Numbered from the stretch's first letter, positions 48,001 through 54,000 are shown. The stretch: DNA of 64,000 bases from a bacterium (GCA_046757025.1 JBHHXN010000001.1:59185-123184), one strand, 5' to 3'. Program-made: the numbers.

Positions 48001-51000
48001 TCTAAATGATTATAAAGACGGTCTGTTGTTTTTCTACTTTTCGAGCACCGATTTGAATGCGCACATGTTTTATAACATGATCGATCCGCAACATCCATCT
48101 TACGATCCGGCGAAAGCGGAAAAGTTCGCTAACGTCATTCCCTCAATTTATCAAAAAGCAGATAAAGTGGTCGGCAAAGTGTTAGATCGGGTGGATGAAC
48201 ATACCACTGTCATCATTATGTCGGATCACGGTTTCGCCCCGTTTCGGCGAGCGGTACATTTGAACACTTGGTTAAAAGATCAGGGCTACGTCAAGCTGGT
48301 GGATGAGTCCAAACAGGCGGACAGCGAATATTTTTTAAATGTCGATTGGACGCGAACGCGAGCTTACGGGCTGGGATTCAATGGCTTGTATGTAAACCTG
48401 CGTGGCCGGGAGATGAGCGGATTCGTTTCGCGCCGTGAAAAAAACGCCCTGCTGGATGAGATTTCTGAAAAACTACTGGCACTGCGTGATCCCAAAAACG
48501 GCGTAAAAATTGTGGACCGGGTGTATCGGGCAGAGGATATTTATTCGGGAGCGTTCGCAGAATTTGCGCCCGACCTGGTGATCGGATACAGTCGAGGGTA
48601 CCGGGCTTCCTGGGAAACCACCATCGGCAATTTCCCGCTGGAATGGATCGAAGACAACATGGATCCCTGGAGCGGTGATCACTGCATGGCAGCAGAGCTG
48701 GTACCCGGCATCATTTTATCTAATAAAAAAATAAAATTAGACAATCCAAAATTGTATGATCTCGCGCCAACTATTTTGGCTGAATTTGGCGTGCCGAAAA
48801 AAGAAGAAATGGTTGGACGAGTCATTTTTTAATTATTGGCTAAATTGGTACAAGGAGATTGCGATGTTAGGACCTAAAATCAAATTAGAAAAAGAATTGT
48901 ATGACCGTGTGAAAAAATTTGCTGATATTGCCGGCTATTCTTCTGTGGAAGAATTTATTACGCATGTTCTTGAAAAGGAGCTGTCGTCCATCGACGATTC
49001 CGAATCAGAAGAAGAGGTCAAAAAGCGTTTGCAAGGATTGGGATATTTGTCATAGCTGAGCGACGGGTACTTATTAATGATTTGAAACCTGAACTGTAAT
49101 GATTTGACAGGAAATATGATGAATATTTTTAATGCGGTATTTAGCGCCATTTTTAACATGCTTTTTTATCCATTTAACAGCCTGGCCCCGGTGTGGGGTA
49201 TGCTGATCATATCGTTTGTCACCGGTGTTGTGATGTTGTTCATATTTAAAGCGACTTCGGACCAGAAGGGCATCAAACAGGCAAAAAATTTTGTTAAGGC
49301 TCATTTTTTAGCCATTCGGTTGTATCGCGATGATATTGGCTTGATGTTCAACACCATGAAAAACATTCTCGTGAGTAATATGCTTTACATGAAGAAGTCG
49401 CTGCGTCCTATGCTGTTTTTGATCGTTCCGGTGGGCGTGATTTTGATTCAGCTCGGCAGCCGTTACGAATTTCGACCCTTCAAAGTGGGGGAGACCTTTA
49501 TTTTAACACTGCGCCTGCATGAAGCGATTGAGAATGTGGATTTGAAAGATGTTGGGATTTCCTTGCCTGTGGGTTTGAGCCTGGATATGCCGCCGGTGAA
49601 AATAGCCCGGCTTCGTGAAGTGAACTGGCGGGTAAAAGCAGAACAGCCCGGCAGTTATGATGTGGTTTTTAAATACCAGGGCAGCACGGTGAATAAGCAA
49701 TTACATGTCGAGGGTGCGCTGGTGCCCATTGCCAGAGAAATTGCCCGAAGTAATTTGTCGGTGGCGCTCATGAACCCGGCTGAATCGAGTTTGCCGGGCT
49801 CTTCATTTGCGTCAATCATTTCTGTTGGCTACCCTAAACGGGATTTTGAATTCTTTGGATGGCAATTTCACTGGCTCATCGCTTTTTTTATTTTCAGCTT
49901 GATTTCTGCATTTGCCTTTAAGGGATTTTTGGGTGTGGAAGTTTAAAACGAAATCTCTATTGAAATGAATTCGACCTCAAGAACTACTGCAAAAGGATAT
50001 TTCGATTCCCATGAGTTATAAACTTCTTTCTGTTAAAACAACCCAGGAGCACGACCTGGAGCAATGGAGTAACCGAAGCCTGGAAGGCGAAATAAACAGT
50101 TTTAACGGCCGCACTGTGGCTCGCATTTTTGATGAATATTTAAATGGCAGTAATTTGAATATTCTGGAAGGCGGTTGCGGATTTGGCGCCTGGTGTGAAT
50201 GGTTTCAACAAAAAGGTTACGACGTTGTCGGTATTGAGTATGACAGGAACATCGTTGAAAATGCCAAAAAATTCAAGCCTAATGTAGCGGTGGAATTGGG
50301 CGATATCACCAATTTACAATACCCGGACAACCATTTTGATGTGTACATTTCGCTCGGGGTGATCGAACATTTTGAGCACGGTCCGGAGAAAGCCTTGCAA
50401 GAAGCCTACCGAATTCTTAAGCCCAATGGCCTGGCCTTTGTTACCACACCGTATTTGACGGTTTTCCGAAAATTCATATCGCATCCTGTCAGAAGTTTGT
50501 ATTTTCTAATTCGCAAACTTCGAGGACAGAGCAGTCACTTTTGGGAATACCGCTTTACGCAGGAAGAGCTGCAAACTTTTCTTGAAAAGGCCGGCTTTGA
50601 AATCATTCACAAAGATATCGACGACTACGAACCTTATGTGAACAACCGCCACATCGGCTTGTGGGCGGACTGGTATTTTTTGCGTAAAAAAAATGGCGAA
50701 ATCTGGGAGCTGAACACGTTGGGGAAATTTATTCTGGCCATATTTAAAATATTTCCCGCCTCCTGGTATTGCTCCGGCCTGCATTTGGTTGCACGGGCTG
50801 TAAAGGATGATTCGAATCATTCTCATAATTCAAATACATTGAACCAAAATTAAACCAAGGAAAGGAAATTTATGTCATTAATTGCGCCTCATGGAGGCAA
50901 GCTTGTTGATCGTATTTTACGAGGAGATGAACGCTTAGCTGCCCTGGTAAAGGCAAAGGGCTTGCAGAAACTGACGTTAAACGCCACAGCTATTTCCGAT

Positions 51001-54000
51001 TTGGAATTGATCGCGGTCGGCGCGTTTAGCCCGCTCACTGGGTTCCTGAAGAAGTCCGACTACGAAAGCGTTCTGACAGACATGCGCCTGAGTAGCGGAC
51101 TGGTCTGGTCCATTCCCATCACGCTGGCGGTGTCGTCAGAGGTGGCTTCGGGCATTAAAATAGGAGAGGAGATTGTTCTGACTTCGCCAGACGATTTGGC
51201 TCTGGCCCTTTTAACTGTGGAAGAAAAATATACTTATGATAAAAAGCGCGAAGCCGAGCTGGTTTACAAGACCACGGAAGACGCGCATCCGGGTGTGGCC
51301 CGTCTTTACAAGCAAGGCGAGGTTCTGTTGGGCGGCGATATCGAGCTCATCAATCGGCTGCCCGATCAACCGTTTCAGGATTTTCGACATGATCCGGCCC
51401 AGAGCCGGCGCATGTTTGCTCAAAGAGGCTGGCAAAAGGTGGTGGGCTTTCAGACGCGCAACCCCATCCACCGCGCACACGAATACATTCAAAAGTGTGC
51501 GCTGGAGATCGTCGATGGTCTGCTGCTGCACCCGCTGGTGGGCGAGACCAAGAAGGACGATATCCCCGCGGATATTCGAATGCAAAGTTATGAAAGCCTG
51601 CTGCGTGATTATTATCCACCGGACCGAACTCTGTTGGGCGTGTTCCCGGCAGCCATGCGCTACGCCGGGCCACGCGAGGCCATCTTTCACGCCCTGGCCA
51701 GAAAAAATTATGGCTGTTCGCATTTTATCGTCGGGCGCGATCACGCCGGCGTGGGCAGCTATTACGGCACCTATGACGCCCAGAAAATTTTCGATGAATT
51801 TACTCCGGAAGAAATTGGCCTGACGCCGCTCTTCTTTGACCACACGTTTTATTGTAAAAAATGTGGGGGCATTGTTTCGGACAAAACCTGTCCGCACGAT
51901 CAGGCGGATCGCATCATTTTGAGCGGAACCCAGGTGCGTGAAATGCTCAGTCGCGGCGAAGCTCCGCCGCCTGAATTCACCCGCCCGGAAGTGGCCAGCA
52001 TTCTGATCGAAGGTTATCGCCAACAGCAATCGTCTGCAGAAGGTAAGATAAAAAAAGGTACAGGCTCGCCTGCTGCGGTGTCGGCCGCCAAATCGACTAC
52101 CGTCGCCGTATCTCAGAATGGACGAAGAAAGGTGTTTGTCATCGGACTCGATTGCGCCACGCCCGAGCTGCTTTTTGACCAGTACAAATCCGAGCTGCCG
52201 AATTTTCGAAAATTGATGGAGCGGGGCTTTTACGGCGAGCTTGAGAGCTCGACGCCTCCGACTACGGTACCGGCCTGGGCTTCCATGCTGAGCAGCAAAG
52301 ATCCCGGACAACTGGGATTTTACGATTTTCGCAATCGGGCGGATTATTCCTATGAAAACATGAATCTGGCTTCTTCAATATCCATCAAGACCGACCGGGT
52401 TTGGGACATTCTTTCCCGTGCAGGCAAAGAAGTCGCCGTAGTGGGCGTGCCGCAAACCTTTCCGGTGCAACCGGTGAACGGCAATTTGATTTCTTGTTTT
52501 TTGACGCCCTCCACCGAAAGTCAATATACCTACCCACAGGAGCTGAAGAAAGAGATCGAGGAGTTGGTTGGCGAATATTTGATCGATGTGCCGAATTTCC
52601 GTACGGAAAATAAAGACTGGCTCCTGCGACAAATCTATGAAATGACCGAAAAGCGCTTTCGCGTGGTGCGTTATCTCATGCGCAACAAACCTTGGGATTT
52701 CTTCATGTTTGTGGAGATGGGCACCGATCGTATTCATCACGGTTTCTGGAAATATATCGATCCGGCGCACCCGAAATACGAGCCGGGCAATCCTTATGAA
52801 AACTCGGTCAAAGACTACTACAAATATCTGGACCGGGAAATCGGCGAGCTGCTCAGTTTGCTGGATGAGAATACCGCGGTATTAGTGATTTCGGATCACG
52901 GCGCCAAAAAAATCGACGGCGGCATCTGCATCAATGAATGGCTCATGGAGAACGGTTATTTAAAATTGCAGGAGAAACCCAACTCGCTCATGCCGTTAGA
53001 GAAGGCGGAAATCGACTGGACTGCCACCAAAGCCTGGGGTGCAGGCGGTTATTTCGGCAGAGTGTTTTTGAATGTCAAAGGGCGTGAGTCGCAAGGAATC
53101 ATCGAACCGGCTGAATATGAATCGGTGCGGGATGAGCTGATCGAAAAGCTGGAAAACCTGACCGATGATAAAGGCGACAGAATTAAGACAAAAGTGATCA
53201 AGCCGGACAAAGTTTATCGGGAAGTCAACAATATTCCGCCGGACCTGATCATCTATTTCGGCGATTTGAATTGGCGTGCGGTGGGCAGCATCGGTTTGAA
53301 TCAGATTTACTCATTTGGAGACGAGCTTGGACCGGACGACGCCAACCATTCGCAACATGGCATCTTTATGATGTACGATCCAAAAAATCCAAGCGGTGGT
53401 CGCAAAATCGACGGCATGAAACTGGTAGATGTGGCGCCCACTATCTTAGACTTAATGGGTGAAAACGTCCCCGGCGATATGATTGGAAATATTATCCCGA
53501 AAAAGTGAGGTGTTTGGGGTTTGAAGAGGAAACGTGCTGCGTACTCCAGTAGTGCGCAGCACGTTATTTCTTAATTGTGAAACAAATCAGGAATCGCATC
53601 GATTAGCGGATCTTCTGTGGATGGCGCTAAAACGAAAAACCTTATTTGTGTAACAAAATTTATTTTGAAAACAGTGTAATTATCGATTAAAACCAATGGA
53701 GGTTTCATCTTTATGGGAGCTACGAAGAAAGCTTGCACGATCTGGTTTACGGGATTACCCTCGTCGGGTAAATCCACTCTGGCTGAAATGTTGGAAAAGG
53801 AATTAAAAAAACTCGGTGAAAATGTCGAAATTCTGGACGGGGATGTGGTGCGAACCAACCTGAGTAAAGGCTTGACTTTTAGCAAAGAAGATCGCGATAT
53901 CAATATCCGCCGAATTGGCTTTGTCTGTCATTTGCTGACGCGCAACGGCGTGTTTGCCATTTCTGCGGCCATTTCGCCTTACCGCAGCGTTCGAGATGAA

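Follow-up and report, generated by a model that had tools for sequence, protein, structure and literature searches.

In the sulfation pathway, ATP sulfurylase (Sat) reversibly converts ATP and sulfate to adenosine 5'-phosphosulfate (APS) and pyrophosphate (PPi), PPi is hydrolyzed, the APS kinase CysC converts APS and ATP to 3'-phosphoadenosine 5'-phosphosulfate (PAPS) and ADP, sulfotransfer gives 3'-phosphoadenosine 5'-phosphate (pAp), and pAp is hydrolyzed in turn. The Sat equilibrium is among the most unfavorable in central metabolism, and the known ways to pull it are GTP hydrolysis by CysN, pyrophosphatase and APS kinase. This study concerns a gene at positions 50872-53508 of a 64,000-nucleotide stretch of bacterial DNA (GCA_046757025.1 JBHHXN010000001.1:59185-123184, called the window here), in which Sat is fused to an NPP-type domain of the alkaline phosphatase superfamily. 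This C-terminal domain, and the stand-alone proteins that correspond to it, are called A, and the fusion protein is called Sat::A. Its central finding is a portable sulfate-activation cassette, sat-A-cysC and variants of that order, in which A is the third core gene.

In the closest described system, the eukaryotic fusion of Sat to a pyrophosphatase, the partner is a classical soluble family I pyrophosphatase. Fusions of Sat to an inorganic pyrophosphatase are found in stramenopiles and haptophytes (Thalassiosira, Phaeodactylum, Phytophthora and Emiliania), where they have been explained as pulling the equilibrium, and Sat-APS reductase fusions have been described in eukaryotes as well (PMC2275785). 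An earlier reading of the window made without database searches (the sequence-only reading) had stated that Sat is normally fused to APS kinase or a GTPase, a list to which both of these eukaryotic partners have to be added. Coupling of Sat to a product-removing enzyme was already known, and what is new is a partner of a different, uncharacterized fold. Sat::A resembles the stramenopile and haptophyte proteins in that Sat is joined, on the reading preferred below, to a product-removing enzyme in a PAPS-producing context. However, the partner is here an unrelated NPP/alkaline-phosphatase-fold domain that has no match to a Pfam pyrophosphatase and for which PPi hydrolysis is only proposed, and the bacterial module also occurs as separate genes and in other fusion orders. 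Sat::A would thus be analogous, not homologous, to the stramenopile protein. The PAPS synthase-type Sat::CysC proteins (Chloroflexus Caur_2113, fungi and the metazoan PAPSS) likewise have a Sat of the same family fused to an enzyme of sulfate activation, but the partner in the window is not APS kinase, and cysC is a separate gene 204 nt downstream.

The Sat::A fusion and the family of domain A

The gene and its parts are as follows.

50872..53508, + strand: whole gene Sat::A, 878 aa plus stop, one uninterrupted open reading frame (ORF)
50881..51357, + strand: PUA-like N-terminal domain of ATP sulfurylase (PUA_2), aa 4-162 (Pfam PF14306, E 1.2e-56, 191 bits)
51379..52011, + strand: ATP-sulfurylase catalytic domain, aa 170-380 (Pfam PF01747, E 3e-99, 331 bits against a cut-off of 24.3)
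52021..52128, + strand: flexible linker, aa 384-419, non-conserved and rich in S, A, Q, G and K
52129..53505, + strand: domain A, aa 420-878, NPP-type alkaline-phosphatase-superfamily domain
52264-52266, + strand: codon of the proposed nucleophile T465, aligned to reference structure 4FDI

The single continuous ORF described by the sequence-only reading was borne out, since the frame is intact and an identical 878-aa protein is encoded on three Logan contigs, of which two trace to runs SRR29324606 and SRR29324610. The antisense strand of the gene has stop codons throughout, and a Shine-Dalgarno-like AAGGAAAGGA lies immediately 5' of the start. The architecture search which that reading had called for was run over 5.8 billion proteins and returned more than 120 protein clusters with the Sat::A architecture. 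The best 120 clusters all have PUA_2, ATP-sulfurylase and PF01663 domains, at 60-100% identity and 95-100% coverage, and some of the fused clusters are labeled merely 'ATP sulfurylase' or 'sulfate adenylyltransferase [Anaerolineae bacterium]'. The nearest relative, at 78% identity, comes from GCA_964539665.1, where it lies within a syntenic cluster.

The N-terminal half was described as a complete Sat domain, and this description holds, as both the Pfam and the NCBIfam cut-offs are exceeded (580 against 387 bits for NF003166 and 456.5 against 322.95 bits for TIGR00339). The two motifs that the sequence-only reading had quoted are there, one of the QxRNPxHxxH type at aa 194-203 and GRDHAG at aa 288-293, and both are invariant in 50 fused homologs. 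Judged by its sequence, and by every criterion of that kind, this half is a bona fide member of the homo-oligomeric type of Sat. The linker is 10-46 aa long among 50 full-length homologs, and column identity in that set drops from 80% in the Sat half to 17% in the linker and rises again to 75% in the C-terminal half. The conservation among homologs puts both the Sat half and the A half under strong purifying selection. An AlphaFold2 model of the full-length protein has a pLDDT below 50 over aa 394-417 and a pTM of 0.56, with a poorly modeled Sat half and a shallow alignment of close homologs.

Downstream of the small-residue-rich linker, the PF01663-like domain named in the sequence-only reading was recovered at 171.5 bits (Pfam Phosphodiest, aa 421-810, E 5e-50) against a gathering score of 23. 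D427, T465, D619, H623, D675, H676 and H826 are invariant in the 50 fused homologs and also in stand-alone homologs from several phyla. T465 is the proposed nucleophile and the other six residues are the proposed metal ligands, in the D/T/DxxxH/DH/H pattern of the alkaline phosphatase superfamily; apart from T465, these residues were assigned by motif pattern and not by structural superposition. In alignment, T465 falls exactly where GALNS (PDB 4FDI) has its catalytic formylglycine, and the AlphaFold2 model of aa 415-878 has a pLDDT of 89 and a pTM of 0.90. By score, fold and catalytic residues A is a member of the NPP/alkaline phosphatase superfamily, in a clade that is uncharacterized.

The chance that the fusion is an artefact, or that its C-terminal domain is a pseudo-enzyme, is negligible. 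A frameshift, a chimeric assembly or a missed stop is ruled out by three contigs that carry the identical ORF and derive from no fewer than two sequencing runs, by the more than 120 clusters of the same architecture and by the fused state of A in 19 of 80 species representatives. A decayed C-terminal domain is ruled out by the invariance of all catalytic residues and the strong conservation of both domains. A sequencing artefact and the loss of metal ligands were also the two ways in which the sequence-only reading had expected that it could fail. The fusion may even extend beyond Chloroflexota: the 'stand-alone' homologs P0122 (KSB1) and P0124 (Calditrichota) open with the C-terminal ~30 residues of a Sat domain (alignment columns 1-56), and both are probably fused or frameshifted Sat::A genes whose starts were mis-called.

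The placement of A with the NPP type came from fold comparison alone. A single-sequence search of A against all PDB chains found nothing significant, a profile search of the same chains gave a best E of 1.6e-4 for a partial match to an arylsulfatase, and no curated NCBIfam model reached its cut-off on A. The weak match to PF00884 Sulfatase (30.6 bits) reflects common superfamily membership; the formylglycine motif C/S-x-P-x-R is missing, and T-V-P-A-W stands at the nucleophile position. In Pfam and NCBIfam A has no homology to the pyrophosphatase families (PF00719 family I, family II DHH and the membrane H+-PPase), and it has no match to the sulfotransferase P-loop families with 5'-PSB and 3'-PB motifs (PF00685, PF13469, PF03567 and related). 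As far as sequence comparison can tell, A is outside every pyrophosphatase, pAp phosphatase, sulfotransferase and formylglycine-sulfatase family.

True NPPs have a base-stacking Phe after the nucleophile, which is part of the aromatic sandwich of the nucleotide pocket. In A the residue that follows T465 is Val, and the protein shares merely 15-18% identity with NPPs of PF01663 (Xac NPP, ENPP4, ENPP6 and ENPP7). It also has ~80 extra residues, which by eye include a conserved beta-rich insert common to the paralogs B, D and E of the window. Another difference from the NPPs is that A is cytoplasmic, because it lacks a signal peptide and is joined to an enzyme of the cytoplasm. The FRNRADYSY loop at aa 486-494, which also sets A apart from the NPPs, is highly conserved, with FRNR invariant, and is modeled with low confidence by AlphaFold2; it may be a mobile substrate lid. 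Stand-alone members of the family carry the JGI label 'predicted AlkP superfamily phosphohydrolase/phosphomutase'. No literature on the Sat::A fusion or the A family was found, though most subscription journals were outside the coverage, so that its absence is unproven.

A sulfate-activation cassette

Species-representative genomes were scanned with an alignment of A, the 80 best loci were kept, and these were annotated with phmmer using as queries the window Sat, A, CysC and B, a PF01663 paralog encoded just after cysC. The loci come from Chloroflexota classes, Methylomirabilota, Acidobacteriota, Deltaproteobacteria/Thermodesulfobacteriota, Zixibacteria, Calditrichaceae, Planctomycetia and others. 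Counts are given for all loci and for those with at least 3 kb of sequence on both sides of A.

Sat within 3 kb of A: 62/80 loci; 36/43 loci with at least 3 kb on both sides
CysC within 3 kb of A: 55/80; 32/43
Sat or CysC within 3 kb of A: 68/80; 39/43
Both Sat and CysC near A: 49/80; 29/43
Sat::A fused: 19/80; 12/43
Paralog B within 4 kb of A: 8/80; 6/43

Stand-alone A is commoner beside sat than A fused to Sat, and the order of the cassette varies by lineage: Sat-A-CysC, A-CysC-Sat (in Ktedonobacteria) and (Sat::CysC)-A, the last in three related loci where a separate A lies beside a Sat::CysC fusion. At least 10 loci have Sat-A with no cysC inside 10 kb. The stand-alone homologs are ~460 aa long and 57-75% identical across phyla (KSB1, Calditrichota, Chloroflexota, Brocadiaceae, Nitrospinota and others), a degree of conservation that fits a universal small substrate. 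Locus L003 of KSB1 has the order Wzz - Sat - A - CysC - sulfotransferase - B - epimerase - sulfotransferase. Since Sat and then A are separate genes there, the fusion in the window is the joined form of two adjacent genes.

The genes that flank the cassette are lineage-specific: Anaerolineae have a response-regulator adenylate cyclase and a flavin reductase there, Ktedonobacteria have an inositol-phosphate synthase and a GHMP kinase, and M23 peptidases or type II secretion genes are found elsewhere. Sulfotransferase and glycosyltransferase families are absent from the 25 commonest families among 149 flanking ORFs, and on one contig of 5.2 Mb the fusion and cysC have a radical-SAM gene on one side and ilvD on the other. 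Because the flanking genes are lineage-specific and unrelated to glycans or sulfotransfer, A travels with sulfate activation itself and not with a particular acceptor pathway. Two other links were considered and rejected. The myo-inositol-phosphate synthase and GHMP kinase neighbors are confined to Ktedonobacteria and lie partly on the opposite strand, and the deltaproteobacterial cassettes of Sat, A and a PHP-domain gene are not beside aprAB or qmo, as a role in dissimilatory sulfate reduction would suggest, their neighbors being type II secretion and PFOR genes. Separately, PF01663 proteins of the type of paralog D adjoin A in L064, L069, L076 and L078.

A profile of the A clade, searched against 1.84 billion cluster representatives (50% identity), matched 5,356 of them at E <= 1e-30, paralogs included, and architectures were taken from the 150 best. 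Among these 150 are APS kinase::A, A::pyruvate kinase, a MobA-like nucleotidyltransferase::A, tandem A-A and a 1,151-aa A::pyruvate-kinase barrel::PUA::ATP-sulfurylase. The last (L091 7459-10914) is followed by an overlapping PHP gene and lies inside a polysaccharide cluster, and the A::pyruvate kinase gene (L092 4297-6657) lies just downstream of a separate sat. Pyruvate-kinase fusions are rare, with two cluster representatives among the 150 listed, and the C-terminal domain of pyruvate kinase was not detected in the L091 and L092 fusions, in which an ADP-phosphorylating role is putative. The nucleotidyltransferase::A gene is found within a phosphonate/LicD-type glycan-decoration cluster; nucleotidyltransferases are a second, unrelated class of PPi-releasing enzymes. 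The partners in CysC::A, A::pyruvate kinase::Sat, the A::pyruvate kinase beside sat and nucleotidyltransferase::A all turn over nucleotides or PPi.

In four loci a 280-aa PHP-domain protein is encoded directly beside A.

L070 11724-12566: PHP domain only identified
L077 11561-12406: homologous to PDB 2YB1
L088 9162-10004: homologous to PDB 2YB1
L091 10911-11756: PHP domain only identified

The matches of the L077 and L088 proteins to 2YB1, in a search of PDB chains, have E values of 2e-38 and 7e-39. The cassettes with a PHP gene have no cysC nearby; two genomes of Deltaproteobacteria or Thermodesulfobacteriota have Sat-A-PHP, and another contig has a PHP-A pair. 2YB1 is Cv1693, a characterized pAp phosphatase (PMC8268124; PMC9410882), and with a homolog of it beside A, pAp removal in those loci is therefore covered by another gene. 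Cv1693 belongs to the pAp phosphatases of the PHP family, while CysQ is of the FIG superfamily and NrnA of the DHH family (PMC8268124). On the preferred reading A would share with these three the role of an accessory phosphohydrolase of sulfation, but it has no homology to any of them, and Cv1693-type PHP genes co-occur with A in the four loci listed.

Proposed function of A and its alternatives

Starting from what is established here, namely the joining of Sat to A, the fold of A with its conserved catalytic residues, and its coupling to sulfate activation in genomes, the best reading of Sat::A is a bifunctional cytoplasmic protein that is accessory to PAPS synthesis. In broad terms, A is probably an accessory enzyme of sulfate activation that splits a P-O bond of a small by-product. 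That this by-product is PPi follows less strongly than the P-O cleavage itself, and the specific proposal to which genomic context and fusion partners point, that A serves the cassette as its pyrophosphatase, either tethered to Sat or next to it, has in our judgment slightly less than an even chance of being correct. On that proposal, the Sat half, of the standard homo-oligomeric type, would carry out ATP + sulfate <-> APS + PPi, and the A half would use a two-metal site for phosphoryl transfer via a phospho-Thr intermediate at T465. The floppy tether of 10-46 aa would keep A beside Sat, PPi would be hydrolyzed near the Sat active site, which would pull the APS-forming equilibrium, and CysC would pull the same equilibrium from the other side. 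The FRNR loop might, as a guess, give positive charge for the terminal phosphoryl group. The claim is limited to proximity of Sat and A and does not extend to a fixed channel, because the model is without confident interdomain packing and the linker is disordered. It is also a claim that A works like a pyrophosphatase, not that it belongs to a pyrophosphatase family, and any such enzyme would be non-homologous to the known ones.

Sat is the most frequent genomic partner of A and by far its most frequent fusion partner. Sat, APS kinase, pyruvate kinase and pyrophosphatase are the enzyme set that drives PAPS synthesis in vitro (PMC9885120), and because the first three are already among the partners of A, A would fill the remaining pyrophosphatase slot. 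Given the preference for Sat, the nucleotidyltransferase fusion, the separate pAp phosphatase homolog, the pyruvate kinase and CysC fusions and the conservation of A, the pyrophosphatase reading is the most economical one.

Several points weigh against it. For the whole family, pyrophosphatase function is something that we infer from genomic context and fusion partners, A is unrelated to the known pyrophosphatase families, and NPP-type enzymes typically cut diesters or nucleotide pyrophosphates and not PPi. A confident interface between Sat and A is absent from the full-length AlphaFold2 model (pTM 0.56). The 80 loci are those closest to the query, and the association may weaken in distant family members. 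There are A-B pairs with no sat or cysC inside 10 kb (L001 10001-12952 and L005 10001-12848), and the Brocadiaceae A-B pair, which is followed by GT4-GT2-GT2, is not explained by a pyrophosphatase. The A::GT2 and A::methyltransferase fusions that exist among the 150 best architectures fit a glycan-modifying role better. Additionally, the 64-kb polysaccharide cluster around Sat::A has sat and cysC and no recognizable sulfotransferase, which leaves room for an unconventional user of PAPS.

The sat/A/cysC cassette, the high conservation and the intact phosphatase-type site would fit equally well if A were a 3'(2'),5'-bisphosphate nucleotidase, that is, a non-homologous analog of CysQ that converts pAp to AMP and Pi. 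pAp is the inhibitory product of PAPS-dependent sulfotransferases and of PAPS reductase, and the CysC::A fusion ties A to the PAPS branch. However, Sat exceeds CysC as the commonest neighbor (62/80 against 55/80) and is the commonest fusion partner, and the loci with Sat-A and no cysC inside 10 kb number at least 10. The nucleotidyltransferase fusion is unconnected with pAp, and of the PHP proteins beside A in four loci, the two examined are Cv1693 homologs, next to which an A of this function would be redundant. We therefore regard a pAp phosphatase as quite unlikely. Equally improbable is a group transferase, in which A would pass an activated group from a donor made by its partner to an acceptor by way of a Thr-bound covalent intermediate like those of EptA and LtaS. 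If the donor were APS or PAPS, this would be an alkaline-phosphatase-fold sulfotransferase or an adenylyl- or phosphotransferase, and with CDP-X or CMP-X it would transfer X-phosphoryl. A pairing of donor synthase and transferase would suit both Sat::A and nucleotidyltransferase::A, the A::GT2 and A::methyltransferase fusions and the A-B pairs beside glycosyltransferases are in keeping with it, and it would make a self-contained unit of a sat-A-cysC cassette that has no second PAPS consumer close by. The window cluster, with sat, cysC, five PF01663 paralogs and no canonical sulfotransferase, also speaks for a transferase, and the sulfuryl or group transferase version would account for the missing enzyme. 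However, that enzyme may sit outside the window, the KSB1 cluster has two canonical sulfotransferases alongside A and B, most cassettes are in non-glycan surroundings with unrelated neighbors, and 57-75% identity between phyla is unusual for acceptor-specific enzymes. On general chemistry, moreover, a sulfo-Thr intermediate is a poor sulfuryl donor. Alkyl sulfates such as sulfo-threonine are very stable, hence the use of formylglycine in sulfatases and of histidine in aryl-sulfotransferases.

A further possibility is that A saves the energy of the PPi released by Sat as a PPi-dependent phosphotransferase, through PPi + AMP -> ADP + Pi or PPi + APS -> PAPS + Pi. It is established enzymology that phospho-Ser/Thr intermediates of the alkaline phosphatase superfamily can go to acceptors other than water. 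The ADP route together with pyruvate kinase would rebuild ATP (net reverse PPDK chemistry), and the A::pyruvate kinase and A::pyruvate kinase::Sat fusions, the latter followed by a PHP gene, would close an adenine-nucleotide cycle of sulfation; several Sat-A(-PHP) cassettes without a nearby cysC agree with this. We know of no PPi-dependent phosphotransferase of this kind, the idea is purely speculative, cysC is present in most cassettes and the pyruvate kinase fusions amount to two representatives among 150, all of which makes it very unlikely. Taken together, the possibilities in which A is a new alkaline-phosphatase-fold transferase in sulfate activation, acting on the sulfuryl or another group of APS or PAPS or recycling PPi to ADP or PAPS, are still unlikely. 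The sequence-only reading had suggested both that the partner hydrolyzes PPi or a nucleotide to pull Sat and that it channels APS or PAPS to a novel transfer reaction. Comparative genomics favors the former, and the latter is disfavored, chemically and by context, relative to hydrolysis. The fusion is also no rarity of the window, as it is one of several interchangeable forms of a widespread cassette.

The surrounding cluster and the meaning of the cassette

The features next to Sat::A and the other PF01663 paralogs of the window are listed here.

53531..53565, + strand: hairpin, 15-bp perfect stem AACGTGCTGCGTACT/AGTGCGCAGCACGTT, loop CCAGT, then ATTTCTTAAT; 23 nt past the Sat::A stop
53713..54336, + strand: cysC, APS kinase, 207 aa (PF01583, E 2.5e-61), the next cassette gene
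54336..55682, + strand: paralog B, 448 aa, soluble cytoplasmic PF01663 protein, start overlapping the cysC stop
55705-57447, + strand: paralog C, 580 aa, PF01663, three predicted N-terminal transmembrane helices
44680-46860, + strand: paralog D, 726 aa, PF01663, N-terminal transmembrane/signal segment and large insert
46787-48832, + strand: paralog E, 681 aa, PF01663, N-terminal transmembrane/signal segment and large insert

The hairpin lies within the 204-nt gap before cysC and, from its sequence, could be a terminator, an attenuator or an mRNA-stabilizing element. B is 29% identical to A, D and E are 39% identical to each other, and in B, C, D and E alike the nucleophile position is occupied by Ser and not by Thr. 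B comes after the module in 8 of the 80 loci, as well as in L003 of KSB1 and the syntenic locus L086, which makes it an occasional fourth member of the cassette. B, C, D and E are candidates for the missing modifying enzymes of the cluster.

The whole window (1-64000, + strand) is a single co-directional Wzx/Wzy polysaccharide biosynthesis cluster that runs off both ends. It has several GT2, GT4 and PMT_2 glycosyltransferases, Wzx-type flippases at 7205 and 23099, a Wzy polymerase at 20485, epimerases/dehydratases, a GH39 protein, a heparinase II/III-like protein, a FemAB-like acyltransferase and a polysaccharide deacetylase. No window ORF of at least 150 aa matched a canonical sulfotransferase family, and a search at relaxed thresholds of the unannotated ORFs 26308, 33496 (N-terminal part), 41490 (N-terminal part) and 49104 found none. 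As the cluster continues past both window ends, there may be a sulfotransferase beyond the 64 kb.

Three PF00884 'Sulfatase' proteins with polytopic N-terminal membrane domains are encoded at 35332-37200, 37451-39592 and 39739-41472. By eye, their formylglycine positions read T-W-P-S-L, T-I-P-S-H and T-S-P-S-H and not C/S-x-P-x-R, and in NCBIfam they have weak matches to EptA, CptA, LtaS and arylsulfatase, all below cut-off. Since the formylglycine motif is replaced, they look like transferases of the LtaS/EptA type and not like sulfatases. Carbamoyl-phosphate synthase is encoded at 11490-15747 (small and large subunits) and NodU/CmcH-type carbamoyltransferases at 16229-18055 and 31357-33090, the first of which is overlapped at its end by an SxtJ-like small protein (18042-18494); this set suggests a carbamoylated glycan. 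Two conserved ORFs have no match in Pfam or NCBIfam, a soluble 634-aa protein (26308-28212) and a 280-aa membrane protein (49104-49946). The latter lies directly upstream of a methyltransferase gene and the fusion, a position that is kept in L086 and on the Logan contigs. ORF 33496 encodes a secreted protein.

The data presented in this study point to a previously undescribed third core gene in a sulfate-activation cassette that is found in many, mostly uncultured phyla, and Sat, APS kinase and pyruvate kinase are partners to which this gene has been fused repeatedly in nature. Should A prove to be a tethered pyrophosphatase, it would represent a non-homologous type of that enzyme and the bacterial counterpart of the stramenopile Sat-pyrophosphatase, and would offer a ready-made part for enzymatic PAPS production. 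If it is instead a transferase, it would open a new route of biological sulfation. Either way, the ~880-aa proteins that are named just 'sulfate adenylyltransferase' are under-annotated.

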